Below are positions 11,701 through 62,883 of a DNA stretch of 64,000 nucleotides, in pieces (positions within the stretch are counted from its first letter, which is position 1; each line of letters starts with the position of its first letter). Location of the stretch: NCBI GenBank assembly GCA_905178155.1, contig CAJINV010000001.1:10404240-10468239 (forward strand), given 5' to 3'. The DNA comes from Amoebophrya sp. A120 (taxonomy: Eukaryota > Protista > Dinoflagellata). Both the position numbers and the translations under genes were made by a program. Under the pieces are notes generated by a model. The model saw nothing but the letters and a program-made list of their open reading frames with translations. It had not been told where the DNA came from and made no database searches.

Positions 11701-12457
11701 TGAGCTTGGCACGCTGCAGCGGAGGAGAACTAGAGGCTTGACTGCGCAAGGAGAGGCACCGTATTCATCCGCCGACGATGCCAAAACACTTGCAGATGCT
11801 ATATTCGCGGCCGCCGGAACGCCAAGAAACGATGCCTCTCTTACTTTCACGCGCGAGAGCCTCGCCGATGCGATTAGGGCAGCAGCTTCATCGCGAGAAA
11901 CAAAGACGACCGATGGTATGGGTGCTAACTTTAGTTCAGGCCTTTTAGCAGGGAGGAACGCGGCAGCGCTTTCCGCAGACAATGCGGATGCTGCCATGTA
12001 TTCGCACCTGATTGATTCTGAGCAGGATGCTGTGCTACTCCGAGAACTGCTGCACACCATTCGTCGCGTTTGCAAGGAAGAAAACGACCAATATGGAGCA
12101 CGCGGTACTACTATCTCAGGCACAGCTGGCAGCTCTACTGCTGCCGCCGCGACCGTACTATCCAAGTCGCCAGTCGCTCCAGATGACATCAAATCGACAG
12201 CGGCAGCCAGCAGTGAGGCTGGGACAACTAACGGTAAGTCACAAGCAGCGTCGAGCAAAAGCTCCGCTGGTAGTCGCAGTCCTCCGGGGAGGAAAGTTAG
12301 CCCGTCACAATTCGTACATAGCGTCGAGGACAATAAACACGGAACTGGTGCTGCTGCTGCGTCGCGTAGGAATGAAAATGTTAGCCATGAGGATGCAAAC
12401 GCCGAAGATTCGCAGACAGAAGGAGGCGAGTCACCCGACATTAGAAAAAGACGATGA
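8798..12457 (+). CDS. ClpB/Hsp100 D2-like single-AAA+ ATPase with hydrophobic N-terminus and C-terminal TM segments; intronless
   Basis: Motifs YIGQGEA, Walker A FLFLGPSGVGKTELA, Walker B VIYLDEIEKA, ATFILSSNLA and ARPEVRNRIAAIVPFTPF. N-terminus MWLKSSGVVFLVFGFRSTSA (ATG 8798). TM-like IAVAWIFFFSIGFWSAAIAFAVLNYGILPL. Confidence 0.85.
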   Translation: MWLKSSGVVFLVFGFRSTSAENFVHLIAPADVRKDGGLKFRANLPVPDTVEELKQNFRAAHLERHGPPGYDEFDFFSTRLEEVLLSVDQLEDGDELRLFRKRGTQAQLSQAQQASGAASGGTAGAVGTSATGAGAAKGNVPAATPQASKNGRKDAGSDVANTKKDAPSNSTSSPTSLSARVQAPNALSVTLPDASSPFYVSELLYMLTRPQLSDADRDLVLRSLRDAQLSDFQRKQILEDFPVTDSVCQESSDSSFREFATAYVHLNPSARGILLLADCDPTFRESLVRAQFARQWEQYGSLLSAGQDASEGQPDTDQGADAAQSTFFPGYIGQGEAMRMVKPLVLEQMLGRRISDAPLSFLFLGPSGVGKTELARKVAEKIHCPTAVESASGSSHQPHHPNSSPCNIKSLTQSGKFVEFKMGNYRNEEQFTSWIGVPDGVKGSDGKLSEVLMQNPDAVIYLDEIEKAISTAGDLLLAMLDNKGSVQVAKTGQHISTVKATFILSSNLATNDILQVWSYYPRLPYEQKYAKILEKIDPALAQSKMFARPEVRNRIAAIVPFTPFLHNEVRQVILLELQKLRKSYKRSAGWGRPNIVWTEEVVELFADPVRNVHFENAVSKGNLRELIRFLEQSVNRALNTAKDCENPKCDLLQTGPTICRPKASDLFSGASDNYVLDVDPRTKTQIVANSVPVTIREAFVFCELSPPEPTLSEAFFGAAGPDAPSLLENPSKWFSNLFYDAPQKRPAIMRPGKQPLGSASSSSAYHDHRAARQPQRVSTSSSSPSSASSSASGSSSAATSSRYETEMDYAYDRLWTFLFEYQKSFSIAVAWIFFFSIGFWSAAIAFAVLNYGILPLSYLAYTTWRSLPPSVQHVVMAGGRVIGQIGKQAVRRFDISFMLLLFLEYRFGLCRKVFFQLVLPVLRIMFRNFRTHLKNLRSTGADALAIINDGGEVGGGMKRRTEDNTTGIELGTLQRRRTRGLTAQGEAPYSSADDAKTLADAIFAAAGTPRNDASLTFTRESLADAIRAAASSRETKTTDGMGANFSSGLLAGRNAAALSADNADAAMYSHLIDSEQDAVLLRELLHTIRRVCKEENDQYGARGTTISGTAGSSTAAAATVLSKSPVAPDDIKSTAAASSEAGTTNGKSQAASSKSSAGSRSPPGRKVSPSQFVHSVEDNKHGTGAAAASRRNENVSHEDANAEDSQTEGGESPDIRKRR

Positions 12458-22990: not shown

Positions 22991-23267
22991 TATCAAATGC
23001 AAAAATGTCTGGGTCTGGAAGGATGCAAGATTTGCCATGCACATTTTGCATGACTCCTGATGTCTGCGACGCATGCCCTAGCATCACAGATCTTGTGAGG
23101 GCTTTCTGATGCCTATAACGCATGAGAAATGCCCTCTCGCCGTGGCCATCAAAGCCAGACCTCTTTTGCTGTTCATGCAATACAGATTTTTGGAATTGGA
23201 TAATGCAGACGCAGTCGCAGCATCACAAGTTGCATTCTTCCAGACCCAGACATTTTTACATTTGATA
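22991..23267. mobile_element. MITE family A copy 2 (277 bp), intergenic, TSD TGTTT
   Basis: Ends tatcaaatgcaaaaatgtctgggtctggaaggatgcaa ... ttgcattcttccagacccagacatttttacatttgata. TGTTT lies at 22986-22990 and 23268-23272. Confidence 0.93.
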
Positions 23268-43891: not shown

Positions 43892-45815
43892 ATGAATCAC
43901 GACGACATTCTGTGCACCTCCATCCCCTCGGAGGAGGGCAAGCGACGAGATCTGCTGGAAATTGCCAAGCAACGAGCCAAGGGGACCTTTCAGATGCGGG
44001 ATCTGCACAATGCGGAGAAGTTGTACGCGAGATGTATCGAGGTCGCCAACCTCCTAAATGAACCCGATCGACACTTGCTGTACTCCAATCGCGCTGCCGT
44101 CCGATTATTGAAAAGCAAGCACCAGCTCGCCCTGGACGATTGTGAGGCCTGCATGGATATGGATTGCAAATATGTCTGGGTCTGGAAGATTGCCAGGTTT
44201 GTCATGCATATTTTGCATAACCAATGATGCCTGTAATGCATGACCTAGCATCACAGATTTTTAAATGGCATTCTGATGCGTATTCCGCATGACAAATGCC
44301 ATTTCCGCGTAGCCCAATTTGAATCCTCTTGCTGGTCATGCAATACAGGTTTCTTTAGCATCCAAATGCAGCATCACATCAAGTTTGGCTCTTCCAGACC
44401 CAGACATTTTTGCATTTGATAATGGATCTAGACGCGGCTTTCATCAAGGCGCACTTTCGTACTCTTTTTTTCTTTCTTCCTGTGAATTTGTCTAAGATAT
44501 ACCATAGGTAATATTGCATCCTGGAACAAAAATAGATACTGTGGTAGAACAATGCGGCATAGGATAAGAGGAAGATCTAGAATTTTCGCACCCTTATATA
44601 TTGCTAAGCTCCTTCCACAAGCACAAACACACCACAGGTAAGTGTCAAGCACTTGTGGGCCTTGAAAGGTTTGAAGACGCAATTTCAGCGGCGAAAACAG
44701 CCCTAGAAATACATCCGGGAAACAAAGATCTCGTCGATATTCAGGGCACGGCGGAGAAAAAGTGGGAGGCGCAGAAAGCAAAACCCGATCCGGAAAAGCC
44801 CACCTTTGACGACTACCGACCGGTCCGTGTAGAGCCCGCCAGCAAAGCCGCAAAGGGAGGAGATGGTAACCCTAACTTATTTCGACGCTGTTCCTTTACT
44901 TAAATGGCGGCTCTAGTACTGTTCGTCTTCGTTTCTGGAAATCGAAATGACTCGGGCAGGCGTACCCCTGCTCCTGTCCAAGATAAATAGATTCGCTTGG
45001 AACTTGCTCAGAAAAACCCCTCCCATGTCCACCCACAGGCTCTGCAGAAGGCGCAACGAGCTCCACCGATTCAGCTACCAAGGCGGATGAGATGAGGGGA
45101 TACAAAAAGACCGCAGACGGTCGCACAACGTCCTACTTTCACACCGAACTCGACGAAAACGCAAAGAAGTTGATTGGTGACTGCAAGCCAAAACAGATTT
45201 CTGCAGACGCGCAACTCGGCAACAAGACAACCTCAGCAGGAAGTGCATGGAATCAAGCAGGTACTTCTACGCGTGTGGTTTTGCAAAGATGTCGTCCATG
45301 TGTGACAAGTACGACCATCAGTGGCTTTGATGCTGATTGTTCTTGCAACTGAAAATAGAAACTCGAACCATTCCAACCAATCGATGCTAGGTACTTTTGA
45401 AGAGCGCGATTACACGAAGTGGTTTTCCGAGGAGGTCCGAAAGGAGGTGAAGGGCAAGTTCCAGGTGCCAGACGAGGCCAAGACGCTGTCCTTCTCCGTC
45501 ACGGATGTGAGCGGCAGCGCGCAAATCACGTCTTCCCGCGGAAAGGTACGGTACATCCACGACAGCACCATTGAACTCAAGTGGAAATTCCCGGTAAACG
45601 AGGACCACACCGAGTACTGCAAGGGTACGATCACCTTCGAGTCCGACGGAGCGGGCGACTACGACATCAACTACGCCTGCACGGAAAAGCAGCACATGGG
45701 AAGAGGCGTCGTCGACAAACACGTCAAAGGCGACGCGTCGACGCTGGTGAAACACATAAGAGAAAAACTGCAAGTCGTGGAGGGGAATTTCAAAGCACTG
45801 AATCCGTTCAAGTAG
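43892..45815 (+). CDS. TPR-repeat + Aha1 N-terminal-like Hsp90 co-chaperone, 5 exons (first interruption is a MITE)
   Basis: TPR segments AKQRAKGTFQ..LYSNRAAVRL..ALDDCEACMDLDAAFIKAHFRKCQAL, then MRGYKKTADGRTTSYF and SAWNQAGTFEERDYTKW (Aha1_N-like start). Confidence 0.85.
44158..44421. mobile_element. MITE/introner family A copy 3 (264 bp) inside a TPR exon, TSD ATGGA
   Basis: Ends tatggattgcaaatatgtctgggtctggaag ... cttccagacccagacatttttgcatttgata (left terminus degenerate). ATGGA lies at 44153-44157 and 44422-44426. Confidence 0.92.
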
Positions 45816-46189
45816 AATGTGATGAATGTGAAATGAATAAATGTGGTCGTTGCCGCTCCTGTCCTCTTGGAGTTGGATCCCGTACCACGTCGCTCATTTA
45901 AGATGCAGAAAAAAGTTCAACTTTTCAGCATTTGAAAAACAAAGATCTTCGTAATTTGCCGCCATCTAACGGCGTTGACGTTGGCGATTGCGAGACGTCA
46001 CGCCACGTTATGTTCGCGCTCTTTTGCTGATCCCCATCTTGCTCAAATCTCGATCCGGTAAAAATACTATGCCCGTTATAAGTACACGGACTATGCAATC
46101 TAATGGTAATGGTAATGCTATGGACGATCTCTCCCTTTTGCTGATGTAAGTAGATCTTTATTGCTCATACACTTGTGCCGAAGTAGATC

Positions 46190-46310
46190 TTTTTACGGGA
46201 TAAATACTTCGAGTGAAAGCATCGTCAGCAAGATCGGTCTCGTTCATATTCATCGTTCATACATTCATTTACAGCCCCGGCTGGGATTTCTGGATATTTT
46301 TTCAGTTTTC
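46190..46310 (+). repeat. Split direct repeat A1 (121 bp)
   Basis: Matches 58918-59038 with one mismatch (aaatacttcg vs aaatatttcg). Confidence 0.97.
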
Positions 46311-46815
46311 TGGATTTATATCAGACATTGGTATACCATTAGGTCAACCTTCACTCCTTTTTCTGACACCAGGACTTCGGTTCTCGTCGATGAATTAGGA
46401 GAGGAGGGGTGTTTTCTGGAGGGGACACCGCCCTCTCGGATTTCTGTTCGACGATGGTCGTCAGATTGATGAGAAGGATACCTTTGTCACAGTCACGCCC
46501 TGGATAGTAAATCGCGCAAGCGAGCCCCTCGCTACAACCATGTTGTGGCGTTACTAGTAGGCAGCAGGAAGTTTCGTCTTGGAAAGTTTAGACCAAGCTG
46601 GCAATCGTACCACTGTAGGCAGTTCACGGCAGAACTAGCCCTTGTCGCTTCGTTGTTCGACACCAGGCAAGCAGACACTCACAAATAGACACAGCAAACA
46701 AGCAGAGAGCTCCAGAGCTGAGACATGGAGCGGAGATACCACGACGCACGAGAGAACGCACTAGTACACTCAAATTTCCCTTCCTATCTCATGACTAGAA
46801 ACAGCTTAGCACAGA

Positions 46816-47885
46816 ATGCCCCGCCACGTCGGGTACTCGCCGGGCCTTGAAGGCTCGGTGCTGTCGCCGGTAGTAGACATCCGAAAGACCAAAGCAGAAC
46901 TATGGCAGCAGTCAGACAAATCGATGAGTCTGATAAATTTTCCGGCCCCGAGAATACACACGGACTACATGTGGCAGGGGAGAGCTGTAGGAGACGGCAG
47001 GCCACTGCCAGACTTTCTGCACAGGACACCAAGGGCAGCATACCTCCCACCAGTAAAGTACGAAAACAGCAATCCACTGAAAGCGCAGGTGTACGCAGTG
47101 CATGCCAAGTGGATACCAGAGCCCAAGGACGAAAAGATATGGGCGAAGCTAGGAGCACCAGAGATTTTTGGTACAGATTAACCCCTTTTTTAGCGGATGC
47201 ATTCATAAAACTGCATGACGCGAGCACATGACACATGTACACATATTATCCCTGGCCAACAACTCTTCAGGTTTGCCAGAAGCTTTCTTTGAAGTGGAAG
47301 TGATCTTGCACACGCAGTACAGTGCGAGGTACGGATTGGCGGAGCAGATGTTCGTGTTGCCCAAGATGATCTGCCCAGTGGGAATCCTGTGGATGCAAAA
47401 GCTGACTTTCACCCGAGAAAGAGACAGACTGAAAGCCTACGAAGCAAAGTTCCAAACGGAACGAAATTACACAAGATATAAAGTTTTCATGCACAGCGAC
47501 CGCTTGTGCAAAGAGTTAGAAGAGGATATAGAGTCCCTGTACAACATAGAGCTAGAAACATCCATCTGTGATCAAACAAAGAGCAATCTCCTGGGCGGAT
47601 TTGTATGCCTTCTCCGGCTCGCAACGAGCGCGACAGATCTTCAACAGGCATTTCGTAGAGCAGCACCAGATGCACGAAGCGTGCATACGAAGTTTCAATT
47701 ACGACATCAGCCCACCCCCGCCGTGCACTTTCTATTGTCATGGCAGATCAAATTTAGCTTTCAGAACAAGGGTGAGAATCTCCGAATTAACCACCAGGAT
47801 CAAAAAGGAAAAAATCGAAAAACCGGACGGACAGCTAGCGGATGAGTATAGCATTGATGTGGATGTTGAGTCAGATACAGACTAA
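46816..47885 (+). CDS. Element accessory ORF-A, unknown function
   Basis: ORF 46816..47181 joins the 47228 frame via GT-AG intron 47171-47270. The 3' end is either 47845 or, with a frameshift, 47885. Confidence 0.55.
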
Positions 47886-48092
47886 TCGCAACTTTCCAAA
47901 ACCAGTCAGCGACTGCTTCCTCCTAGTATAGAAGCGGCGTCCACGTAGATACCAAAATCTAACGAAGAAAACTAGTTTTAGTATAAGAAAAAGCAGTAAG
48001 TTTAGTGCACAACTAGCAACAAGAAATTGTTTGTCAGCGATTCAGCCACCTTAGGTTTTTAAGTTTCACTTTGACCCCAAGCAAAATCGAAA

Positions 48093-48938
48093 ATGAGTGG
48101 CATCAGCCACGACGTCTCCATCAAGAATTGCGACACAATGCGTGTCGGAAAATGTGATAACTTAGTTGATTTGGCGAGGAAGCAGGGAGCTAGCGTCATG
48201 AACTTGCTTGAGGACATTGTCAAGAATGGTGGCAAAGATGATGTAGGATCTAACGCTGCCGGGATCTTCATGAATGATCTTACTTCTAAACACAGCTCCC
48301 ATTTAGGTGTCGACGGAACCCGTGTTCCGACTCTGTCTGAAGGACAGAGCCAGAAGCTACTGCATGTGTACAGGTCTTTGGCGCAGTTCGCTATCACTAC
48401 TGTGATCCCGGCGCTCAGTGCTAAAGTCGCGGCTTATAGTGAGTTGATTGACGAGTTGTGGGTGGACTTAAACCCCACCACGGTGCAAACTCTCTTCCCG
48501 AACTGGATGACTTTCTGTGCCGAATGTGCAGCAAAAATATATTTTTTGCGAGGTAAGCTTGCCTTGCCAGAGCTGCAGATGTCCCAAGAGCTTAAGCATT
48601 TCAAGCATGTGTGCATCAAGCGTAGGACGGACGGCATTACTACCTCCGGGTTCGTCCCGGTCGTGGGAGGACAAGCCACCGGAACCACAGCTACGGAATT
48701 AGCATCCCAGTTAACTACCCATCTCTCCAAAGAGCCGTACTTCATTGCGTACGATGACGAAGAGTTAGAAGATTTAGGAGAAAAGGTGTTGAATTTAGCG
48801 AAGATGTATTCCAAGACAATGGATGAAGAAATGAAGAAGAAGTATGAGAAAGCCGGACGGTACGCATTCGGACTGCCCGGTGCGCAGTCGTCCAGCTCGG
48901 GCGGATCCTCTTCTTCCTCTAGCAAGGGAGGAAAGTAA
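48093..48938 (+). CDS. Element accessory ORF-B (281 aa, intronless), unknown function
   Basis: Clean ATG ORF with helical, protein-like composition. No motif recognised. Confidence 0.7.
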   Translation: MSGISHDVSIKNCDTMRVGKCDNLVDLARKQGASVMNLLEDIVKNGGKDDVGSNAAGIFMNDLTSKHSSHLGVDGTRVPTLSEGQSQKLLHVYRSLAQFAITTVIPALSAKVAAYSELIDELWVDLNPTTVQTLFPNWMTFCAECAAKIYFLRGKLALPELQMSQELKHFKHVCIKRRTDGITTSGFVPVVGGQATGTTATELASQLTTHLSKEPYFIAYDDEELEDLGEKVLNLAKMYSKTMDEEMKKKYEKAGRYAFGLPGAQSSSSGGSSSSSSKGGK

Positions 48939-49076
48939 TTTCATACAATTTAGTTTGGGTACATGTGTGAGAGTGGACGCCGCATGTATGTGTTAAAAAT
49001 AGCGATTAGCAGCTAAGCGCAGCCTTTAAAATATCATTTTTATTTTTAGAAACATCACCTTCAGTAAGATTCTACA

Positions 49077-49980
49077 ATGGGACGCTGCAGCTCCAGAGCG
49101 GACGAGCAGCCTACAGCTCAAGGGAGTGCAGTCTCCAGCGATGATGAAAGCGATATCATTGGTACAGTTTGGATGCTGCTGCTAAACTCTCATCTTCACA
49201 TCAATGAAAGTAGTACACGCAGACACATACTAGCCCGCATTCACCCAATTTCAAATCAGATACAACATCCGATAGCACGAACCACGAGCAAGACACGAGA
49301 GAGCGATACGGTTTTGGTCTGATCCGGAAAAAACCAGAAAAGTATAGAATCATACATGAGTTTCACAGTTCCTGATGCCTTTCTGTGGGCAGATGCTTTT
49401 AGTGGTGCATGCCTGCCTTCCATCAAATACATTTCGACACACCATGCAGGTTTGATATCATGTCGACGCTCGGAAAACCAGCTGAGCACGTACTGACAAA
49501 AACCGAAAGAGCAAATGCTTTATCGACGATGATAGCACATGCGATACTATCTCAATGCTGCCGGACCAGCGGAACAGTCGAAAGAGCCTTCTTCGGGAAA
49601 ATGATACAAGACACAATAGAGGCGCGGTTCATATTAGTTTCCATGTCTGGCACGAGTGCCAGGATTTACATCACACTCATGATGGACACCAGCACGCGAT
49701 GCAAGTTAAATGCACACCACCAAAATACATTTCCCAGGTTCGTACCCTGATGGACATCCAGAACATACACCCGCTGATTCAAAATTTCTTGCGGACAACT
49801 ACCTCCCCAGTGGCGGTGCACGAAATTCCGAGGCCAGGACTGCGTTATTACGAGTCGGGAAATGTTTTCTGGTCTACGACAGAAAAAGAATTCTTGACAT
49901 ACGTAGTGAGTGGCTCTATGAAAAAAGGGTGCAAATACAAATTGACAGCACCGGCAGAAGAAATTTTAGATGGAAAGTGA
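49077..49980 (+). CDS. Element accessory ORF-C (4 exons), unknown function
   Basis: Introns 49162-49259, 49342-49449 and ~49637-49737 link four open segments in frame. Starts MGRCSS. Confidence 0.55.
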
Positions 49981-50398
49981 ATACTCGAACCCGAGAACGC
50001 AGCTGATTTGAAACAAGAAAAACTTTTAATGTAGCTGTGCATGTTGCTACGGACCACAAATCAAAACCCTCACCACCGGCTACGTAAGCCTGCCAGCTTG
50101 TTTCATTCAAGCTTGATGTTGAATTCTCTACGGCACAGCGTCTAAACGTGGTAGACTGTCTCTCCTGGTTTTGAAGTTGCAAGATGTCAGCTCGCTCGTC
50201 GAAGGTGCGGCACCACACAAGGCAGACATAACAGCACATACAATAGTATACAGAGCCATCAGTGTCAGTGTGTAAGATCCGGAAATCACAGTTTGAGTTG
50301 CGTTTCGTGCGTGCCCGGAGCTCCCATGTGACCCTCTCCATGAAAAAAGCCTTAGCGGCAGTTACCTGCGTGTAGTTGTTTTAGGTTAGTAGTGAAGG

Positions 50399-53300
50399 AT
50401 GACGGCTTCGTCGTCTTCTCAGGGCCCGGACCAAAAACCGGGAAGCGGCGCTCCGGACGCACCGCCAAGCGGTCCACCGGCCGGAGCATCGTCGTCCAAG
50501 AAGAACATTACACAGGATAAAGAAAAATCGAAGATGTCGAAAGACAAAAACCAGCAACAACAAAAGCTAGCTGGAGGAGCAGATCAGCAGCATGCGCCAG
50601 CGGATGACACCTCAGCAACCGAGGCAAACAAAGACTTCCAGATTGGTACGATTCGCATCACAGACGCAGTTTCGCAGTGCGAGCCTCCGAGGCAGTTCAC
50701 CTCAATGGAGAATGCGACCATCTTCAATGAGAAAGCAGGACAAGCCTGGGAAGCTTTTCTCAGCGACCCAGCCCAGTATGCAGATGTGATCTCCATACTA
50801 CCGGACAATAAGTCGGCGCGGCGCCTGATAGTAGAAAAACTAGCCAACATCAATGAGGGAGCTGAGCTGGACTTGCAGAACCTGCAGGCGATGGCGGACA
50901 TAATCTGCACAGCACTGGCCAAGACGTCGCTGTATGCGCACGACAACGGACCAATGATGATCCAATCCATGACGGAAGGTGCATGTAAAGCGAACGGAAT
51001 CGACTACGTCTCACCGTCAAAAGCCTTCGGCGCAATAGTAGGTGACGCAGGAGTGAAGCTAGCAGCCTACATCAGGAAAATCTTCTCGCTCTTTGTGAAC
51101 AAAGTGTGCGACGGCAAAATCTCACAGCTCCCAAAGCACGTAAGCGGCGTTTTTGTGCACGTCAATACCAGGTCAACGATGGGACTCATCCAGCAGATGA
51201 TTTGGTATCTTTTAACATACAGCCTATTTTTGTTAGCAAAGCAACTAACGACAGCACATTTATCGCAGCCGACGTGCATTGATATCCCCCCTTCTCTTCA
51301 AATATCAGGACAATGAGAGCGCAGATTCTGGTCACAGCGCCAGAAAGCGCAGCGAGGGACAAGGACATTTACGGAAAGGACCGCTTCACCGAGCTACTGC
51401 CGGACGCCATACAAGAAATCCTCAACCTGGGGCACACCAAAATCGCAGGACTGGACTTGTCGTCGGAGGGCGGCAAAAAGCGGCTCGGGTGGAACGTCCA
51501 TGACTTTCACGACCTAACCAGCAAAGCGAATGGCCTTGCGCCGAGCTGGCCGTGGGCAGGGATCGCGTACACGACTTTCTCCGACTTCGCAGCAGCATGG
51601 AGCAAGAAATTTGTACCACCACAGCAGCCGGAAGTAGACTTGTCAAAGTCCATATCAGCCCCGAAGAAATCAGCATTACAGCTGGACTTCTCCGGTAGCA
51701 TCAGGAGAAAGTTCCAGTTAGCGCAGCCAGATAGCACCGACCAGTCTTTGCAGGGCCAGGTAAAGCAAGAAGCAGCAAGCTGGGCGAGCAAGTTACAGCC
51801 AAACAGCACCAAAACACAGCAACAGTACATCCCACCAAGCAATCCAGCACACCCTCTCAACCCAACGAACGCAGGAAGCTTACAGTCTTTCTTAGGTTTC
51901 GGAGCAGCAGCCTCGTCATCATCGAATACAGCAGCAGCTTCCTCGGCAGCAAGAGCAGCACAAGTTAGCTCCTCCAGTGCACACAAGAACTTCTTCAGTC
52001 AGTTTAGCAGCAAAAGCAAGAAAAATGGCGTAGCCGTCGGCAACGATAGCAGTAGCGATAGCAGCGACAGCGACGACAGCAACAAAGCAACATACCCGAG
52101 CAGCATGGTATTGGGGAAAAAGCAGAAAAAGCAGCACGCATACCCAAGGCAGGCACAGAACCAGAGCGCCATGGTGTCAGCTCTTGATTTACTTTTCGCC
52201 AAAACAGAAGAAGACGCCAAAAAAGCAGTAGTCACAGAGCAACAAATGGAAGTTGCATACCACTACATAATGGAAGGAGACCCGACCGCTTACGATGTTC
52301 CTTTCGACGAGCAAAATGCGATCCCGCACAACGTCAGGAAGTACACAGCTCTAGACCCGAAAGGAGACCTGAACCCGATTGACTTTGTGCAAGCAAAACA
52401 CGAGGTCGAGGCCACGCTAGTAAAAGGCTTAGCAGCGATGGAAGAAGGCGAACTAGAAGACCGTGTAGCTCCTTTCTTTTCTGTTTTTCTGATGATGAGT
52501 TATGCGCATTATCATGAAAACAATGATACAAGCCCTTTGATATTATTCTTCAAAAAATTTCTTATCAGTCCGCCCCCAGAACGACAGACACTTTGCGTGC
52601 ACGACGAAAGCTGTGCTGTTGCCTTTCAAAACAGTAGTTGAAGCCGGACGAGAAAAAGCCAGGGACTTTGTCTTCGACGTGACGATAATTGGACAGCAGG
52701 GCAGATTGCGAAAAGAGAGATGGCGTGACATGCTGAAGGATCACCCGAACGGATGTAAGCTAGAACCGAGCAAAGCCAATTTCAATTGGCCAAAATCCTT
52801 CGTGGACAAGGACAGAGTAATGAAGACGCTGCTGCAGATCACAAGAGGGGCAGCGGCTGACGATTCCCACCTGTGCAATAGGATCGGGGTAAAATCGCCG
52901 CAGGAGCTGACAGAGCTGAGGAGGATGTTAGAAAAGGTGCCCCCCTTTTTTAAGTCGAGAAAACATTGGACAATAACCAAGTGCACACAGCACGAGCATG
53001 ACAGACATACAGCACTGCACCACAAACCTGCAGCATGCGTTATTTTCTCTCTCCCTCCCAGGTCAAGGACGACTGGGCGCCGAACAGGAGTGACGGCGAC
53101 AGGAGCCCGCAGATTTCAAGCAGAGCCAGCGCGTTCTCGTTGGTCGAGAAGTTTAGTTACGCGGCCATCTTAGCTGCAGCGCCACTGCTGCAGGGGGTGT
53201 GGACGGACAGTGCAGAAAGCAAGTGCGGTTTAGTAGCGTCGAACATCAGAGAAGACGCAATCTGGAAAAAGTTTTGTGCCGAAAAGTTATCGCAAGCGAA

Positions 53301-54084
53301 GGGAGTTTTAGTAGTAATCGACAAGCTACACACAGACGAAAAGTTCAACAAAAACGACTTCAAGCCAAAGGACTACACAAACGCCTTGAAAAAGTGGCGC
53401 ATGGACGTGAATGAAGAGGATCAAGAAGACAGGGACTTCATGGAGAAGATCAAGAACGCCAAAGGGAAAAACAGGAAGGGAAAGAACAATAATAACAACA
53501 ACAACAACAAGGGAGGAGGCAGCAGAGACAACAGAGGAGGTATCAGCTTAGAACATTTTAGCTTCTTGCATCATGCATGCATGCAATATAGGTAGCTTTG
53601 TTGCTTCCTCGGGAAATGCAGCACCAGTGAGTCATTATATTTTCCTTTCTGTTACACTCCAGGAGGCAAAGGCCGAGGAACAGGAAAAGGAGGAGGAGCA
53701 GGCACAGGCAAGGGCAGTGATGAGAGCAAGGGCTTCTTCTTGTTCTTGGATCACACGCGGAATAGTATTTGCGAAGTCATCGACAAAGACCCGGCCAAGT
53801 TCAACTTCCAGAATTGCTGCATCCCGGCGCTGGCCGAAAAATACGGCATCACAAATGCGCAAGGAGAGCTAATCTCTTGCAAGCATAAGGATGGTAGTGA
53901 GTGTAGGAAAGACAAGTGGCACTCGCAAGCAGCCAAAGTCTACAAAGAAAGTCCCACTGTGAAAGCAGTCCCCAGGCCTACCAAGAAGGCAAAGAAGGGC
54001 GCCCCTTCAAGTTCGGCAGCTACCATTACCAGCAATGACACCGAGGCAGCCACAGCTGAAGCTGGAGCGGCTGCTACGGCATAA
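50399..54084 (+). CDS. Gag-like ORF of the YR retrotransposon (5 exons)
   Basis: Introns ~51172-51308, 52463-52634, 52937-53061 and 53540-53662 join the frames. The C-terminus has GGKGRGTGKG and a Cys/His cluster (CC...C..C...H). Assignment as gag rests on position before pol. Confidence 0.7.
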
Positions 54085-54426
54085 TCGTTTCGATCGCAAG
54101 CAATGGATTTTTCATGGGAGTATCAGTTTCGCTCGCTTTTCATGTCTGTCAAACACAAATTTACTGCTGTGCAAGATGTAAGACGGAACCACTCATACCT
54201 GATTCGCAGCACCATTAGTGACAAGGTTGCCGAGGCAAGGCTGCCTACCTTGTCCCCACAAATACAGTTCGTGTTATCGATTCTGTAACACAAAGAGTTG
54301 TGAGAGTAATTTTAGATGCTATGACAGGGAGCAAGAGGACCAGTATTCAGACCTGCATACTAGCCAGCGCGCCACTTTTTCCTCTTCTCAAAACCCACAT
54401 AGCAAGCGGACAATGACCATGGAAAA

Positions 54427-56972
54427 ATGATGACTCTCCCCTTCATCTTCGTTGCGGCAGCAGCAATGCAACCTCGTGCAGTAAGCCTCCGACCCCCCAA
54501 AAAAGCCACCACCAGGATGCCGGTAGTCACACCAGACTGGAAGATGTCGATAGACCACCTGAGGTCGACACACGACTATGACCCGCTCACAAGATTTCAG
54601 CGGGAAGCAGAAAGGCGAGACAAATTAGTCGAGGACTTGTTAAAAGTGGAGCGCGACAACGCTACGACGATAGCGGAGTACGAAAAAGAAAAACCGGATC
54701 ACATCAAGAAGATCAATGACTACTTCGAGGGATGGGACACGATCTACAACACCAAGTACTAGTTATGTTTGATCCTCTTTGGGGTGATGCACTTTGTTTC
54801 TTGCGTATCGAGCGTTGCATGCCATCGACATCATTCATTTTTATACACCGCAGGAGGATGAGCACCTTCATGCACTTTCACGCAGCGGAGCAGTGCAATT
54901 ATTTGGACCCAGACCGCAGGACGCTGCTTTACGGGAAAAAAGGATATGTTAATTGTGGTTTAGAAAGTCAGGGGCAGCTACCCAAATATGGAGCCTGGCC
55001 CAATGGCAAAGAAGTGACAAAGTCAGAGCTTAGCAATCTATCAAACTTCGACATAAACGATCCAGCACGAAAATCAAGCCTAGATAAGTTTGCCCAAATC
55101 AGAGACGGCCCGTGGCACTTCGAAACGGAAGACGTCACAGAAAGGTCGTACAAAAGCTACAGCAAGCTCATGGACGCAGGACTGGCGTCTATGCTCTGTG
55201 AATCCTGTGCAAAATGGGAAATAGAGCAGGGCACATGGTTCGCAGCCATTTTTGGCCTGGGCCAGAAAAAGTGCCACGAAACAGGACAGCGCAGTAAAGT
55301 GCGCCCTATTAGCAATGAGAAATATAGGAATAAAATTTTAAGCCCGCCAGTCGAACATCTTACGTTCAGCGGCCTACCCGAAATCTTGCAGGGCATTGTG
55401 TACTGCTGCAACCCAGAGTACGAAGACTCATACTTCGAAAATAAGAAAGACGTACTTAGAAGCATACAAGTAGCAAGCGACAAAGCTAAAAAGTGGCGCA
55501 AAGGCAATCTCAAAAAGATGACCTGGCGCGACATCCGCACGCTGCCACGAAAGAAAAAAGAGCACAAAGGAAAATCCTTTTTGCCCTGTCTTAGCAAAGA
55601 CGACCTTGCTAGTGCCTATTGGCAATATGGAGTTAAAGATCCAAAACAAAATGGATTTCAAATATACTGCCCCGAAAAACAGCGTATGGAATTCGGATTC
55701 TTACGTTGTTTGAATTTCGGCAATATTCATTCCATATATGGCTTCTGCGCCTGTTGCAGCCAATGGATGGAAAAATGGTTCAACCAAATAGGGAAAGTAC
55801 CAGTATTCCAGTATGTAGATGATTTAGTCTACTTTTCAGATCAGGGCGGAACTTTAGCACCGCTATACGAACGCTTCATAAGGCGCGTGCTAGCAATATG
55901 GGGCATAGCCTTAGCACCAGAGAAGCACGAGCAAATGCTCCCAAGCCAAGACATAGGGGAAATTTTAGGAATAGGATGCAGAAGACTAACAGACTCAATT
56001 GAATTCTTCTTACCAGAAGCAAAAGCTAAGCGGATTGCGGCCGACTTAGATAGGGTGGCAAATTTGATCAGAGATCCAGACCAGCGGACATTAGAATCGA
56101 CGCACAAAGAGTTGGAAAAAGTCCAAGGGTTACTCTGTCACGCGATGTACAGTAGGAAATTTAGAAGAAGTTTACCGGTATTAAAGCACATTTTTGCACT
56201 TACATCGCAGCCCAAAAATTTTGCCCAAAATATTAGCAGCAAAAGCAGACGCGAGCAGTTACTGATAGTCTTGAAAAAGTGCAAGGAGATCATAGAGAGA
56301 AGAGACAAGACAGGCATAGCCCGAGACAAAATGTGTAGGGACAGAGTGCACATGTTTACAGACGCAGCCGCATCACAAAGCGACGGGAAAATTAGTTTCG
56401 GCGCGATAAGTTTCTTAGAAGACGAGGCTAGCAGTATAGGTTTCTTCCTGCATACTAGTCAAGATGAAGTCCCGTCCTTTTTCAAAAGGTCAACAGTAAT
56501 GTGCTACGAGGCGGCTGCAGTGGCATTAGGACAGCGGCTGCTGACGAGATTTAGCGAATCGCCGAGCTACATAGTCAATGTGGACAACTCTTCGCGCACT
56601 TACGGTATAGTGAATGCATCAGTTGATTGTCCAAAAACAGCGTCCGTGATTAGCATCTTAAGTGACAGAGCATATTCGCAGCAAGTTGAGTACTTTTATA
56701 GTTATGTCTCAACGCATTTGAACAGTGCGGATGCGACAACAAGAATAGAAGTGATGGATTCACTAAGCCGATCATACAGCACAAAGTTTCCACTTTCGCG
56801 AAGCGAAGTCATGCAGGAGCTAGAATTGCTGGCAAAAGAATGCGAAGAGTTACATGACGAACTGATGCTAGGGGATATTAGGAAAGAGCAGATGCTTCAC
56901 ATATTTGTTTCAAAATGCACAGGCCGACCAGAAAAAGAAGGCCAAGCTGAAAGAGCCGAAGAAGTCGTGTGA
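54427..56972 (+). CDS. Reverse transcriptase + RNase H (pol), 2 exons
   Basis: RT motifs KVRPISNE, DDLASAYWQ, CLNFGNIHS, QYVDDL and ILGI. RNase H motifs MFTDAA, YEAAAV, VDNS and NSADATTR. Intron 54756-54853. Confidence 0.93.
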
Positions 56973-58266
56973 TTTCGCACGATGCGCAGGCAAAGTTTGT
57001 CACCATTTTAATGGGATCAAGACACAGTTGGAGCGCTGGTCTACCCTGCTCGCCCAAAAGAAAGCCCCAAACATCGTACCCTATCACATCAGCATACAAT
57101 GGCCATTACCACCACAGACAGTCTTACTATTTTGGCCTGAAGAAGAGCGGGATTGCCGCATTGTAGGTATCTGAGATGAGTAGTGTTTTTTCCCTTTGCA
57201 AATCAGAGGAGAGCAAGGCTACATGACAGAGAGTACATACCTCCCCTGTCTTCTTCGCATTTATTTTCTTCTCAGGTGAAGTCGAGACACGAAATTCAAA
57301 GTGGAGAGTTTGGATGCGCTATTGTCAGCTGCACCACCCGGAGTTTTTCTTCATTCCCCACACTTTCACCACACAAGCAGAAGTAGAAGTAATCAAAAAG
57401 CGACACGCCAATGTCACCTTCAGCCACCACCTCATCCCGTTTGCCAATTGGATTTGCGAAAAAGATATCGGGAACCCGATCCCGTACATCTCGACGATCG
57501 CTATCAGATTACGATCGCTGGAGCTTCTGGAGCAGACACAGTCGTACTGCCAGCAAATACAACAAGCAACATACCACAGACTGAAGAGCCTGGCGAAGGA
57601 CCTCTCAGTTAAAAGAGCCATCCCGCCTGACACGAGCAAGCTGAACCTGCTGAACGCAAGAGAATCTCGGTTATTCGCCATGTGGGCGCCCACAGGACTC
57701 CGACCATCAGCCTTTGCGTCGATAGACCCGCTGCAAGTCAAGGATGACCCGGAAGCACCGGGGCGCTTCGTCAGAACACTAGTCACATCCGAAAAAGTGT
57801 TCGCCGTGCCAGGCGAGAGTTTCTATGCCAGAATTCCACAGAATTCATGGTGCTATTAGTTTAGTGATGGTAGCCTATGAGCAGTGTAGAGCATTTGCAT
57901 ACATGCTTTGAGTGCATATACCCCATTGCCTCAGTGCATACAAATATTACAAGGTATCCAGCAGACTTCCCGGCGCACAAAACCGAGATGGACATTTTGT
58001 GCAGAAAGTTAGGCACAACGCCATACGGAGTCAGAAGAAGCTTAGCGATGTGGCTCAGGTTCAGAAGCCTGGAGTGCGGTGCAACACCCGCGGGCGATGA
58101 GATCGCAATGAAGAAATTTGAAGTTTTCAAGAGGAAAGTGACAAGCCATTTTGGATGGTCAGAGTCAAGTTTGATGTGGGAGGAAACCTATTCAGTGGAT
58201 TGCTTGAAATACATCAGCCACAAGTTTTACGTCCACCCAGACACTCAGTGGTGGTTTACTGTATGA
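56905..58266 (+). CDS. Tyrosine recombinase, 3 exons; start unresolved, overlaps pol
   Basis: TGLRPS (Arg), PYGVRRSLA (HxxR-like), HFGW and EETY (candidate Tyr nucleophile). Introns 57167-57275 and 57850-57953. Confidence 0.8.
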
Positions 58267-58647
58267 TCGTTTCGTGTTTCAATCTGAAAATGCAAGAAAA
58301 ACAATGATCTCCCAGCAGGAGGAGAAGAATGTCTGTAGCAAGCGAAGCCTTTCTCGAGTTCCTTTCGTACCAGTCGCAAGTACTACGCTTGTAGTTCGCA
58401 GCCCAAGCATGAGATCTTCCAGCATAACAGAGCAGTGCCTGACGGTGTCCCCTCCATGACCTACACTGATCTTTTGTGCTCAGATCTCTACCTTGTGCTC
58501 CTACTGATCCCCTGGATCAGACCGGTCGTCCCTCATAAGATTCAGATCATATCAGCGACGCCCTGAGAACGTTTGGGGCGCTTTATCGTGCACACGATAG
58601 CCAAAATACAGAAGCACTCTTCGCGCCCGTGAAGAGGAGGAAAGCCA

Positions 58648-58920
58648 CAGCTAGCACTACCCCGACCTTGTCGCGGTGTGTGCTCTGCTGGGTCTTTGCT
58701 GACGCACTCCCCGGAGTGCGTTACTAGTCCGCGCTTGCGGTCTACCCTTGGGTGGACCTTTGCGCTGACTTTCGTCCAGGCATGCTGTGACACTCGTGTC
58801 GCAGCCCGCTTGGACAGCATGGATCTGGTATTTCTTCACTTCTCGATGCTGAGAAGCTGCATCATACAGATACATCATATCGATCCTTGTACTGACGAGT
58901 GCTTTTCACCGTGAATATTT
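58648..58920 (+). repeat. Split direct repeat B1 (273 bp)
   Basis: Matches 59068-59340 with 4 mismatches seen. Confidence 0.97.
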
Positions 58921-59038
58921 TTACGGGATAAATATTTCGAGTGAAAGCATCGTCAGCAAGATCGGTCTCGTTCATATTCATCGTTCATACATTCATTTAC
59001 AGCCCCGGCTGGGATTTCTGGATATTTTTTCAGTTTTC
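58918..59038 (+). repeat. Split direct repeat A2
   Basis: Copy of 46190-46310, overlapping B1 by TTT. Confidence 0.97.
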
Positions 59039-59067
59039 CCCGCCCGCCTACACCCTGATGTAGCGAC

Positions 59068-59340
59068 CAGCTAGCACTACCCCGACCTTGTCGCGGTGTG
59101 TGCTCTGCTGGGTCTTTGCTGACGCACTCCCCGGAGTGCGTTACTAGTCCGCGCTTGCGGTCTACCCTAGGGTGGACCTACGCGCTGACTTTCGTCCAGG
59201 CATGCTGTGACACTCGTGTCGCAGCCCGCTTGGACAGCATGGATCTGGTATTTCTTCACTTCTCGATGCTGAGAAGCTGCATCATACAGATACATCATAT
59301 CGATCCTTGTACTGACGAGTGCTTTTCGCCGTGAATATTT
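59068..59340 (+). repeat. Split direct repeat B2 (element 3' end)
   Basis: Copy of 58648-58920. Confidence 0.97.
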
Positions 59341-59541
59341 ATTGCTCATACAAGGACCTCCGTTGACATTTTTCTTTTTGTCATAATTCATTGCGTTTAC
59401 AGGTCGTATTGATTTTGATTTCGTGTGTTCAACATTGACATTGAAAGTACAAGAAGTTTAGCTTTTCGTAAACTTAAATACCCCGCATAGTTCTGGCTTT
59501 AAGGAAAAGAAATATAACGGAAAGACAAACAAGACAAACAT

Positions 59542-62500
59542 ATGGTATCCCCAACAAGAGATTCGAAAGCCAGCGGTCCGCGGTTGAGGGGTTTCAGAAT
59601 CTGGGGTCGGCACATTTCATTTCTGACCTTCTCACTAGCACTGGCATGGTTCTTCCGCACCGCAACCGCTGCGGATCTTTTCGGTTTCAGGGCCGCGGCA
59701 GATTCGGATTCCGAAGAAGGTGAATTCGCTAGCCCCACGACGGACAGAAAATGGGAGCTGATACAGAACGACAAGGGCCTGACATGCTATCGGCGGCTCG
59801 ATGTCATCGGGCAGCCGGCGCTACGGACGGACACCATCGTCTTTGACCTGGACGAAACTATTTCCCTGATCACAGTCGACATCCGGTCGGGTGACAGCGA
59901 TGCGACAAAGCGCTCCCACTGTGCTATCTCGATGGGCGGCGGCAAGGGATTCGATAAACCAGGAACTACACCAGCTACAGTTGAAGCGGTTCCCGACAAG
60001 AACGTAGATGGGCAAAAGAGGAAACCGAAACGCGTGAGGTTCGAAGACGTAAATGATAGCACCAGTCCTTCGGCGTCTTTGCCCTCTTCGAGAAGAACGC
60101 CGTCGTTTGGCGAGCGATATTCATCTCTAGGATCGGCGTCAGCTAACATAGGAGCGCAAGAGAGCTCTGCTTCTGACCGGCGCACACGCGACCAGCATCA
60201 GGAGCTGCAGCAGCAGCAACAATATTCTGGGGTCGCGACTACCTTGGCCTTGCTGCCAGGGTTTGTAAAACTGGGCGGCAACTACCGAATCGAAAGGCTA
60301 CTGCACACAGTCCGCATGGCGCATAATGCCGGTATGAAACTCCTGCTGATGACCAGAAATCAAGGTGGAGTGTATCGCATCCTTTCCTTCCTGCGGAACT
60401 GCGTTCCCGGGTTGCTGCCCTACTTCAAGCATATAATATCGCTGCACGACAGCCACATTGTGACCAATCCAGACGTAAAGAAGTCGGTGAGAACTTTCCT
60501 ACACGGCGTTACTATTAGACACGACCACGGTTACCTGCACAGTCACGATTGGGAGCGGTACGCAGCTCGGCTGGACGTCAGGGAGTTCCCTTTAGGCGCG
60601 CGCGATCTGGGGCTGGATGACGACGCTTTGCAACGCGCGCGAAACGGGTTTGAGGGACTTCTGCGCGCACTGTGGCCACCTGCGCGTAGCAATCCGCACA
60701 GCGTCAAAATTCCGGCCATCAGTAAAGCGAGTCTGCTGCGAGTGCTCGCGCCGAAACTCCGACTGTCGGCGGAAAGAATGCTGTTGGTTGATGACGATGT
60801 AAATCAGCACATCCCGAATCTCGACGAGGTGTGGTTCCGCGGGGATGATAAACCGAGGAAAACTGGATCTACAACTTCCTCGCGGGACAGAAGAGCAATG
60901 CAGCCCCCGTCATCTGTCGGCGGCGCGAAGAAGCGAATGGAAGCCCTGAACGACGAACTTGTTTCTGTCAATGGGTGGTCTCGGGCGAGCATGAACGCGC
61001 CTGAAGTTGCAGCTGCTGATCAACCGCATTCGCGGGTGGTAGCGCCGTCTTCTCCACTTTCGCAGGAGGACCAACGCGCCGGCGGGCGGCACACACTCAG
61101 TCAGACAACCACAACTATTCCGGTGCTCAGTGGAATGTACGGCACGCAGGACACAAACTGCCTCGCCACAAGCAAATCCAGGGCAAGGGGGACCGGCGTC
61201 AGCAAAAGCAGGACAACTGCAACATCCACTACAACACCGTTCTTAGCTGCCTTCCAGCAGCTCGTCACAATCAATTCCCACGATGCAGATGTGAAAGTAA
61301 GGGCGGATCCTGCGGACAACACTAGAACCACAGCTGCACTTCCTGGTCAGACGAGGACAGTCACCGGTACCTCCGTAATTAGTCCGCAGCGAGTTGCGGC
61401 AGGTAGAAAAAAACTTTTCAGCACCGATCTACAGGAGCCGCCATTCGACCCACTGGGCTTTCTCAGTGGTCCCGATGACGATCTTTCCACTCAAGATCCG
61501 ACGACTGACGAATCCCCCGAGGATGAAGAAGTGCCTGAGGCAGACGAATTTCGAAATCCAAAGGCCAACGGCCCGCAAAAACCTGGAGCGCGAAGGAGAA
61601 TCTGTAGTACTGGAGCTACTCCGGCAAAAGTAAATGATGTACAGGATGCGGAGCCTGACTGCGTCCAGCAAGAAGACCAAATTGTAAAAGGCCTGGCTGC
61701 CCTTACTCTGCGCAATGCTTACGAAAGGTGTCGTGAGGACCTCCGAGAGGTAGACGAGGAAGATGTTGACGTGATAAGTCTTGATCATTCCGCTCACGCA
61801 CCGGTGGGTGTTTTGGACGTGGGAAAGAACCATGCACCAGATGGACAAATGCACGACGGGGCAACGGGTCGAAACAGTAGTAGATTCTGTGTGTACGAGT
61901 ACACCTCCCTGGCAGACATTGTACCAAGGACCAACGAGACGGCGCAGCCATTAGCCGGAAACTGGAACGTCGCAAGACTGAACCAAAACCAACTACAAGC
62001 CATCAACGCATACACAACGAACAGGTGCAGCACTGGGGTTAAAAAGCTGGTCAAGAAGGTTTGCAAACGCTTGAACCCCCTGGCGGCCAGCGCAGGAGAG
62101 GACTGCTGCGGTAGTGTGAACTGGTGCTCTGGCGAGCGAGACTTCGAAGACGGGGACGAAGAAGTAAAGCCATCGAGCAAGGAGATCTGGAAGGGCAGAC
62201 AGCAACGAGACCCGCAGCTCCTGGAGGAAGCAGAACGACGGCCTGGTGTTCCTGCGAGAAGGAAATCAACCCAAAAGCATGACACGCGGCTGCGCGAAGA
62301 AGATTTACTGGCAGAAGACCAAATGCTTCCGCGTGGCTGTCTCGTCCGCAAGTCCGATGAATTCGAAAATTTGCTGCATGCACTCTTCCCGTACGAGCCG
62401 CTACACCCGCTGGGAGGTATCGGCGGCGGCAGGGCTGAGGGCGTTCTCCACTGGCCGGGGTCGCACCGGGAACACTTGGATAACGAGTTTGGTTTGTTGG

Positions 62501-62883
62501 ACTTCATGATCCATGACACGGTCGGCCTCGAGGACAAGCTGAAGCCACAAGCAGCGCAACTACACCTCCACGACTATGACAGCGACGAACTGGCACAGAT
62601 ACGCCACGAGGGAAAGATGCTTTCTGCCGCGTTGACACCCTACGTCGGAACAAGATCTATGTTGAGCAAAGAATCTCCTGCCTCCGCAGGTGGAGAAGCA
62701 AGAAGCAGCAGCGCTGGGCAAGGCGCAGGTCCGGACCGGCAACCGCTTGGTTTATCTAGTGGAAAAACTCGGGCGCCGGGACTCGGCAATACTTTCGCCC
62801 GGAAAGTTCTAGACACGAACGACGATGCGCACAAGGCACTGCGACAAGCAAGCGGCACGAATGCTGACAAGTATCTAATTTAG
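59542..62883 (+). CDS. HAD-superfamily phosphatase-like protein with N-terminal signal/TM segment; intronless, 1113 aa
   Basis: TIVFDLDETI (DxDxT motif I), LLLMTRN (motif II), ISKA (motif III Lys) and LLVDDD (motif IV). Hydrophobic ISFLTFSLALAWFF near the N-terminus. Long low-complexity tail. Confidence 0.7.
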   Translation: MVSPTRDSKASGPRLRGFRIWGRHISFLTFSLALAWFFRTATAADLFGFRAAADSDSEEGEFASPTTDRKWELIQNDKGLTCYRRLDVIGQPALRTDTIVFDLDETISLITVDIRSGDSDATKRSHCAISMGGGKGFDKPGTTPATVEAVPDKNVDGQKRKPKRVRFEDVNDSTSPSASLPSSRRTPSFGERYSSLGSASANIGAQESSASDRRTRDQHQELQQQQQYSGVATTLALLPGFVKLGGNYRIERLLHTVRMAHNAGMKLLLMTRNQGGVYRILSFLRNCVPGLLPYFKHIISLHDSHIVTNPDVKKSVRTFLHGVTIRHDHGYLHSHDWERYAARLDVREFPLGARDLGLDDDALQRARNGFEGLLRALWPPARSNPHSVKIPAISKASLLRVLAPKLRLSAERMLLVDDDVNQHIPNLDEVWFRGDDKPRKTGSTTSSRDRRAMQPPSSVGGAKKRMEALNDELVSVNGWSRASMNAPEVAAADQPHSRVVAPSSPLSQEDQRAGGRHTLSQTTTTIPVLSGMYGTQDTNCLATSKSRARGTGVSKSRTTATSTTTPFLAAFQQLVTINSHDADVKVRADPADNTRTTAALPGQTRTVTGTSVISPQRVAAGRKKLFSTDLQEPPFDPLGFLSGPDDDLSTQDPTTDESPEDEEVPEADEFRNPKANGPQKPGARRRICSTGATPAKVNDVQDAEPDCVQQEDQIVKGLAALTLRNAYERCREDLREVDEEDVDVISLDHSAHAPVGVLDVGKNHAPDGQMHDGATGRNSSRFCVYEYTSLADIVPRTNETAQPLAGNWNVARLNQNQLQAINAYTTNRCSTGVKKLVKKVCKRLNPLAASAGEDCCGSVNWCSGERDFEDGDEEVKPSSKEIWKGRQQRDPQLLEEAERRPGVPARRKSTQKHDTRLREEDLLAEDQMLPRGCLVRKSDEFENLLHALFPYEPLHPLGGIGGGRAEGVLHWPGSHREHLDNEFGLLDFMIHDTVGLEDKLKPQAAQLHLHDYDSDELAQIRHEGKMLSAALTPYVGTRSMLSKESPASAGGEARSSSAGQGAGPDRQPLGLSSGKTRAPGLGNTFARKVLDTNDDAHKALRQASGTNADKYLI

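Follow-up and report, generated by a model that had tools for sequence, protein, structure and literature searches.

Elements copied through RNA normally lose their introns, and intron loss has become the standard proof of an RNA intermediate. The stretch of Amoebophrya sp. A120 DNA analysed here (64,000 nucleotides, hereafter the window) carries at 46190-59340 a 13-kb retrotransposon with a tyrosine recombinase (YR) that bears directly on this rule. It is probably a Ngaro-type YR retrotransposon with at least eleven predicted introns, whose proteins would be made from spliced RNAs while the unspliced full-length RNA is copied into new elements, with the rare loss of a single intron. A dozen introns kept across lineages separated by a synonymous divergence (dS) of ~0.56, together with one precise loss, would mean that the RNA to be copied is chosen before, or against, splicing. 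Such retention bears on where and how elements of the order DIRS replicate, and the family could serve as a test system for intron loss mediated by reverse transcriptase (RT).

All open reading frames (ORFs) of the element lie on the + strand, in the order ORF-A, ORF-B, ORF-C, gag-like gene, pol and YR, and the direct terminal repeats around them are split as A1 ... B1-A2-(29-nt spacer)-B2. Repeat A1 (46190-46310) opens with a TTT recombination core at 46190-46192, and the same core stands at the end of repeat B2 (59068-59340), which follows the unique spacer at 59039-59067. Compared over 124 nt, A1 (46187-46310) and A2 (58915-59038) are 98% identical, and from 46190 onwards, where A2 corresponds to 58918-59038, they differ at one of 121 nt; B1 (58648-58920) and B2 differ at four of 273 nt. 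The first-pass annotation, made from the letters of the DNA, had put the identity of the split repeats at about 99%, and this holds for both pairs. Three of the four differences between B1 and B2 bunch at 58747-58761 / 59167-59181, a stretch that is also variable in both sister loci described below and is possibly a mutation hotspot or a template-switch point. Inverted terminal repeats were not found in the element, the terminal repeats being all direct. The predicted circle junction, in which the last letters of B2 meet the first of A1, is identical to the internal B1/A2 joint. The insertion site is a 24-nt direct repeat of the host, whose second copy the element interrupts (46148-46192 on the left, 59341-59352 on the right); taking the element out in silico restores that copy, so that only TTT is common to element and target and there is no target-site duplication, both features being read from one insertion. 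The circle junction and the common TTT fit the trinucleotide integration model of DIRS elements (PMC7192593).

Eleven GT-AG segments of 98-125 nt, spread over all genes but ORF-B, interrupt the reading frames; once they are taken out, ORF-A, ORF-C, gag, pol and YR are open. The predicted introns, all on the + strand, are A1 in ORF-A (47171-47270, 100 nt); C1 (49162-49259, 98 nt), C2 (49342-49449, 108 nt) and C3 (49637-49737, 101 nt) in ORF-C; G1 (51205-51308, 104 nt), G2 (52463-52568, 106 nt), G3 (52937-53061, 125 nt) and G4 (53540-53662, 123 nt) in the gag-like gene; P1 in pol (54756-54853, 98 nt); and Y1 (57167-57275, 109 nt) and Y2 (57850-57953, 104 nt) in YR. Their number and distribution (one, three, four, one and two), the GT donors and AG acceptors, and the coordinates first proposed for P1, Y1 and Y2 all proved right, while the proposed lengths of ~98-172 bp did not, the first gag intron being best placed at 51205-51308. 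Since many poor GT-AG pairs restore frames too, frame restoration alone is weak evidence. GT opens all eleven segments, CAG closes ten of them and AAG one, and T makes up 31% of the segments vs 19% of the exons. Acceptor strength is more telling: in a leave-one-out test 10 of the 11 acceptors ranked within the top 0.4-7.3% of 1162 AG sites (combined P ~5e-6, corrected for the choice among frame-compatible acceptors). Three donors are weak, those of C3 (29th percentile), G2 (65th) and P1 (41st), and in G2 the weak donor is paired with a strong acceptor.

The strong evidence comes from comparison with diverged copies. Two sister loci, L001 and L002, were recovered among 46 pattern matches in a metagenome collection. 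L001 is 89% identical over 54604-59022 and keeps P1, Y1 and Y2 with their GT and AG, at lengths changed by +1 (99 nt), +4 (113 nt) and +17 (121 nt), none of them a multiple of three. Indel events number six in 310 intron columns vs none in 3313 exon columns (P=4e-7), and substitutions fall on 70 of the intron columns (23%) vs 323 of the exon columns (10%; P=4e-10). The five spliced exons show ratios of nonsynonymous to synonymous divergence (dN/dS) of 0.03-0.07 at dS up to 0.6, with values of at least 1.3 in shifted frames. L002, 96.8% identical, keeps Y1 (108 nt) and Y2 (104 nt). Reading through past the donors of P1, Y1 and Y2 meets a stop within 16 codons in every copy with an open upstream exon. 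While Y1 and Y2 change at the synonymous rate (P=0.47), P1 differs from L001 at 11 of 98 sites vs 40% at synonymous sites (P=1e-8), and this unusual conservation makes it a candidate for holding a regulatory or packaging signal.

The spliced joints were also examined in protein alignments, for which 27 of 142 relatives, ~35% identical, were used; none reaches G1, A1 or C1-C3. At most two gap columns occur in all 25 alignments spanning P1, all seven spanning G3, both spanning G2 and two of the four spanning G4, where the sequence is of low complexity (these being gap-free), and in 11 of 12 at Y2 and 9 of 10 at Y1. Comparative support thus exists for P1, Y1, Y2, C1, G1 and G3, and it is good for the first three; the evidence for C1 and G1 comes from copies in the same genome (below). 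With a GT donor, a YAG behind a pyrimidine tract, free length change and exons selected in frame, the segments would qualify as spliceosomal introns. That they instead reflect decay, or are spacers bridged by frameshifting or by editing, might be argued from the ease with which frame-restoring GT-AG pairs are found by chance and from the want of RNA evidence. This explanation has next to no probability in our judgement: length changes that are not triplets are confined to the segments, GT and AG are conserved, read-through frames run into stops, protein homology continues without gaps over four joints, and one genomic copy carries a precise intron-less joint.

That last observation comes from a DNA run, X1, whose mapping to the window is covered here by 15 of 64 joints, 40 of 487 substitutions, 12 of 17 indels and 8 of 11456 pieces. 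Depth is 43-52 with no differences in the unique flank and 62-112 in the element, which points to about one or two more genomic copies; the extra depth begins at the left end of the element and does not cover the left flank. X1 contigs with substitutions cross 52545-53950 (G3 and G4) and 56821-57540 (Y1) without gaps and so keep these introns, and another has 1-nt indels at 51209 and 51284, both inside G1. One contig has only four letters separating 49159 from 49262, which give the exact spliced joint of C1 and two synonymous changes; its depth of 50.8 vs 43-52 in the flanks is that of a single copy. This contig confirms the borders of C1 and shows a genomic copy without it, and the exact joint fits the signature of copying from a spliced, or partly spliced, RNA. 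The first-pass annotation had named sister copies lacking the segments as a sign of gain after insertion; such absence was seen for C1 alone and is consistent with an occasional loss or one gain, not with wholesale gain.

Could spliced and unspliced RNAs both be copied freely, with intron-less copies arising often and dying out because they are poorly expressed in an intron-dependent host, so that selection and not the choice of template preserves the introns? One sister does lack C1, among 15 of 64 joints listed, and the introns of the element resemble the ordinary GT-AG introns of the host. Some sister stretches would then be expected to be clean of introns, and yet every sister stretch seen over P1, Y1, Y2, G3 and G4 keeps its intron, even in L002, which is dead by a stop in YR. 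We therefore regard free copying as quite unlikely. The first-pass suggestion that an unspliced genomic RNA is copied gains support from the same sisters, L001 keeping P1, Y1 and Y2, L002 Y1 and Y2, and the X1 contigs G3, G4 and Y1.

It is also conceivable, and in our view very improbable, that a resident or domesticated copy acquired the introns once it was inserted, and that the sisters arose from it by segmental duplication or are orthologues of its locus. The host genome does hold very active intron-forming elements, the Amoebophrya introners (PMC7789003), and the flanks of L001 and L002 lie off their contigs. Against this, the same introns occupy the same sites in copies at dS ~0.56, the repeats are 98.5-99% identical with precise ends, and the extra X1 depth starts at the left end of the element to the exclusion of the left flank. 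Moreover, unlike the host introner, the introns of the element have neither terminal inverted repeats, direct repeats nor mutual similarity. An introner origin was accordingly rejected: the longest inverted word is 3-6 nt, the slide 0-3 nt and mutual matches at most 13 nt, and in the element the end of the exon is not repeated at the end of the intron (2-9 matches in 20).

The paired repeats bear on whether the element moves through RNA or as DNA. At 13 sites the window's B1 and B2 share a letter that differs from B1 of L001, and at two sites A1 and A2 do likewise, which indicates that, since the two lineages parted, the repeats have been renewed from a single template, as happens in an RT cycle. 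As both lineages kept P1, Y1 and Y2 over the same period, the introns likely survived reverse transcription. On the alternative account the element moves mainly as DNA, the recombinase excising or copying a circle that re-integrates, so that the introns escape an RT that is rarely used. The recombinase is complete, a recombination core stands at both ends, copy number is low, transposons moving as DNA with a YR only are known in the Cryptons (PMC3212892), and no special handling of RNA would be needed to retain introns. This route, also raised in the first-pass annotation as partial movement as DNA, nevertheless appears unlikely, being disfavoured by the homogenisation of the paired repeats within a copy (13 + 2 sites), by the precise intron-less joint in genomic DNA, and by the conservation of RT and RNase H as strongly as that of YR (dN/dS 0.06 vs L001).

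Several points weigh against copying of an unspliced RNA as we propose it. Splicing is deduced from the comparison of DNA rather than observed as RNA; introns A1, C2 and C3 are predictions, and G2 is nearly so. For L002 taken alone the contrast between intron and exon is not significant (P=0.16), and its YR has a stop. Most of the relatives are ab initio gene models, which confirm the joints rather than introns of their own, and an ORF from a Logan/ENA contig (P0107) crosses the P1 site unbroken, which makes P1 probably not universal. The loss of C1 is seen in a single contig, the shorter side of which has 30 letters, and C1 could instead be a gain in the lineage of the window; with 15 of 64 joints listed, further losses may be hidden and retention less complete than is apparent. 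Gene conversion between B1 and B2, which lie 420 nt apart, could homogenise the repeats and is the main alternative to the RT cycle on this point, and L001's own B2 is off its contig. Only some two further copies are apparent in the genome, so present activity is low. The RNA runs X4-X6 placed no reads on the element or on the flanking host exons and gave only short matches to a host repeat; they are not of this organism and are uninformative on expression.

Overall, we favour the copying of an unspliced RNA, and the cycle can be sketched by analogy with the DIRS/Ngaro model. A transcript would span A1 to B2, the RT would switch template at the A and B repeats to yield a circle whose junction is the internal B1/A2 joint, and the recombinase would integrate this circle at the TTT core. 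Proteins would be translated from spliced RNAs, the full-length unspliced RNA would be reverse-transcribed so that new copies inherit the introns, and a rare copy made from a partly spliced RNA would lose one of them. The unspliced RNA could be selected by copying in the nucleus, or by binding of Gag that blocks splicing, with P1 as the candidate signal. Tagged DIRS-1 with an engineered intron near the 5' end gave unspliced cDNA, and the authors suggest that splicing and retrotransposition factors compete (PMC7192593); RT can therefore act before splicing within the order DIRS. A bolder version, which we hold tentatively and think rather doubtful, is that five or six genes on one strand are each reached by splicing, that the spliceosome is actively kept off the full-length template RNA at a dozen sites, and that introns are gained and lost singly. 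If true, the family would be a natural, countable assay of intron loss mediated by RT, and would suggest that YR retrotransposons in general have a way to replicate with their introns retained.

The conserved start Met of pol (RT and RNase H) is at 54517, and the window reads through to 56972, having CAG at 56889-56891 where both sisters have the stop. The match to Pfam RVT_1 (E=1.2e-5) is below the gathering score. A word-index protein search with pol gave one relative and an unindexed search 142, 19 of them at E<=1e-30; among viral contigs no relative was found. The YxDD aspartates and the four acidic residues of RNase H (D/E/D/D) are invariant in 40 of 40 aligned sequences. A PDB sequence search with pol alone gave no match and a profile search weak RT matches only (best E=3e-4); a single-sequence fold was uninformative (pLDDT 36), and the RT model predicted from the alignment (pLDDT 89) matches the retroviral and pararetroviral RTs of MMLV, CaMV and HIV at E ~1e-10. 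In the sister sequence P0001 the last RNase H motif lies 48 residues before the end of pol, which leaves no room for a methyltransferase, and a family search found no methyltransferase in the window or in 27 relatives.

The YR gene (56923-58266) encodes 376 aa once spliced, with catalytic residues R224, K255, Y297-x-x-R300, W341 and Y352. In 12 aligned relatives both arginines, the tryptophan and the tyrosine are present in all 12, the lysine in 10 (two gaps), and the H/Y position holds H in five and Y in seven. In the ESM Atlas exon 2 scored 0.95 to a phage-integrase cluster with PF00589 on 28% of its members, while single YR exons gave no Pfam match and a word-index search of longer proteins with exon 2 no relative. 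The first in-frame Met is residue 95, yet the 94 codons before it, none of them ATG, are under selection (dN/dS 0.07). An extra acceptor, the CAG at 56920-56922, is predicted before the first exon and is within the top 6% of AG sites. L001 differs by 36%, with an indel, just upstream of it and is conserved downstream, and the gene models of four relatives enter YR at about this point. Together with the missing early ATG, this suggests that YR is likely expressed through the splicing of an exon further upstream to the acceptor at 56922; that acceptor is of phase 0, and the predicted phase-0 donors of C3 and G3 would be compatible with it.

The upstream genes are less familiar. The gag-like gene (50399-54084; 1075 aa once spliced) is putatively assigned by its position, its size and its homology to what precedes pol in the relatives; it has no Pfam match and no CCHC knuckle, and a word-index protein search with its exon 2 gave no relative. 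Eleven of its 15 listed X1 variants are synonymous. ORF-A (46816-47845) has no family match, and its frame under selection extends to 47885. A 4-nt duplication near 47573 pushes the window's ORF-A out of this frame, and an X1 contig lacks the 4 nt. Upstream of 47573 three of three variants are synonymous in the window's frame, and downstream five of eight are so in the other frame vs one of eight in the window's; the frameshift therefore belongs to the window copy, or could be an assembly error. The element had been called intact in the first-pass annotation, which is true of the RT, RNase H and YR motifs and not of the whole copy, given this frameshift and the lost pol stop. The selected frame of ORF-A may join ORF-B through two further predicted GT-AG introns (47846-47948 and 47981-48081). 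ORF-B itself (48093-48938; 281 aa) is free of introns and is found in a sister ~10% diverged; it has no Pfam family above the cut-off and no ESM Atlas match. ORF-C (49077-49980) encodes 198 aa once spliced. Homologues of ORF-A, ORF-B and ORF-C were not detected in the 27 tested relatives. For single-intron fusions of B-C, C-gag, gag-pol and pol-YR, frame-compatible splice pairs exist and none stands out. Pyrimidine-rich AG sites stand shortly upstream of most start codons (46790-46815, 48060-48092, 49025-49076 and 54380-54516), as would be expected if a polycistronic RNA were resolved by cis-splicing or by spliced-leader trans-splicing.

The surrounding host sequence has introns of another kind. 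A host gene with TPR and Aha1 domains holds at 44159-44427 a non-canonical intron of 269 nt that has inverted repeats at its ends and a direct repeat of 6 nt; without this intron the frame is restored. Its summed contig depth in X1, 109,000-243,000 vs ~45 in unique DNA, implies a very large introner family, and further copies lie near 17927-18168 and 22991-23267; non-canonical introns of this kind with inverted repeats have been described for Amoebophrya (PMC7789003). Elsewhere in the window, an array of 29-nt units at 6849-8079 is palindromic as well and has long open frames on both strands, and two intron-less host ORFs occur, one of 1246 codons at 8717-12457 with an AAA-type P-loop by eye and one of 1121 codons at 59518-62883 with no Pfam match.

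How, then, does the element relate to known systems? No intron-rich YR retrotransposon and no YR element of Amoebophrya is described in the full-text literature searched, outside of which lie subscription papers, Repbase and supplements. Goodwin and Poulter, writing in 2004, reportedly mention spliceosomal introns in some YR retrotransposons, and if this holds the trait is already known in a milder form. The main text of PMC3783388 contains neither 'intron' nor 'splic' and that of PMC6681497 not 'intron', and an intron-rich YR retrotransposon is not described in the consulted portions of PMC8226300, PMC12477816, PMC8547959, PMC9940879, PMC5890265 and PMC3212892. To speak of an undescribed system, as the first-pass annotation did, is nonetheless too strong: Ngaro-type architecture is known, unspliced cDNA is known for DIRS-1 (PMC7192593), and the exception it cited, the retention of introns by Penelope-like elements, is in print (PMC8557442). 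Those elements resemble the present one in carrying introns through retrotransposition and differ in their RT class, GIY-YIG endonuclease and pseudo-LTRs, and in having few introns, often one in the 5' untranslated region.

Unclassified relatives are found in Amoebophrya sp. AT5.2, whose gene models (EukProt) account for 15 of the 20 relatives looked up. Their pol, YR and gag are ~35% identical, in the same order and with the same catalytic residues; they differ in being annotated only as host gene models and in the undetected ORF-A, B and C. Many diverged members of the family are thus annotated as host genes of AT5.2 (P0002-P0035, P0112 and P0127), several as gag-pol-YR fusions, and a second, more distant group occurs there as well (P0021, P0153). 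It is evident that elements of this kind get annotated as host genes.

The catalytic residues of RT and RNase H, a YR in place of a DDE integrase and the missing target-site duplication assign the element to the order DIRS. Cryptons have a YR without RT, whereas here RT and RNase H are present and conserved, which rules them out. DIRS-1 of Dictyostelium discoideum shares RT/RNase H and YR, the trinucleotide at the circle junction and the unspliced cDNA obtained with an engineered intron; it has inverted repeats with an internal complementary region and a methyltransferase, and no natural introns are reported in the part of its description drawn on here (PMC7192593), and DIRS1-like membership is ruled out by terminal repeats that are only direct. 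The split direct repeat layout is given for Ngaro, PAT-like and VIPER elements (PMC8969392, PMC13465315, PMC6681497), the repeats of the latter two following one another as they do here (PMC6681497, PMC7192593). In PAT-like elements RNase H is followed by a methyltransferase, whereas pol ends here ~48 residues past the last RNase H motif; the absence of that domain rules out membership, and VIPER has been described from kinetoplastids. Ngaro elements, defined among other features by A1 ... B1 A2 B2 repeats (PMC13465315, PMC8547959) and known from Cafeteria burkhardae (PMC8547959), share the A1-[ORFs]-B1A2B2 layout, the order of gag-like gene, RT/RNase H and YR, and the lack of both methyltransferase and target-site duplication. 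By layout and genes, rather than by a tree, the present element would therefore work like a Ngaro. It departs from that pattern in its length of 13 kb vs ~6-7 kb, in two or three extra ORFs upstream of gag, in a YR that follows pol behind a predicted acceptor where the Ngaro YR widely overlaps pol, and in at least eleven predicted GT-AG introns in all genes but ORF-B.

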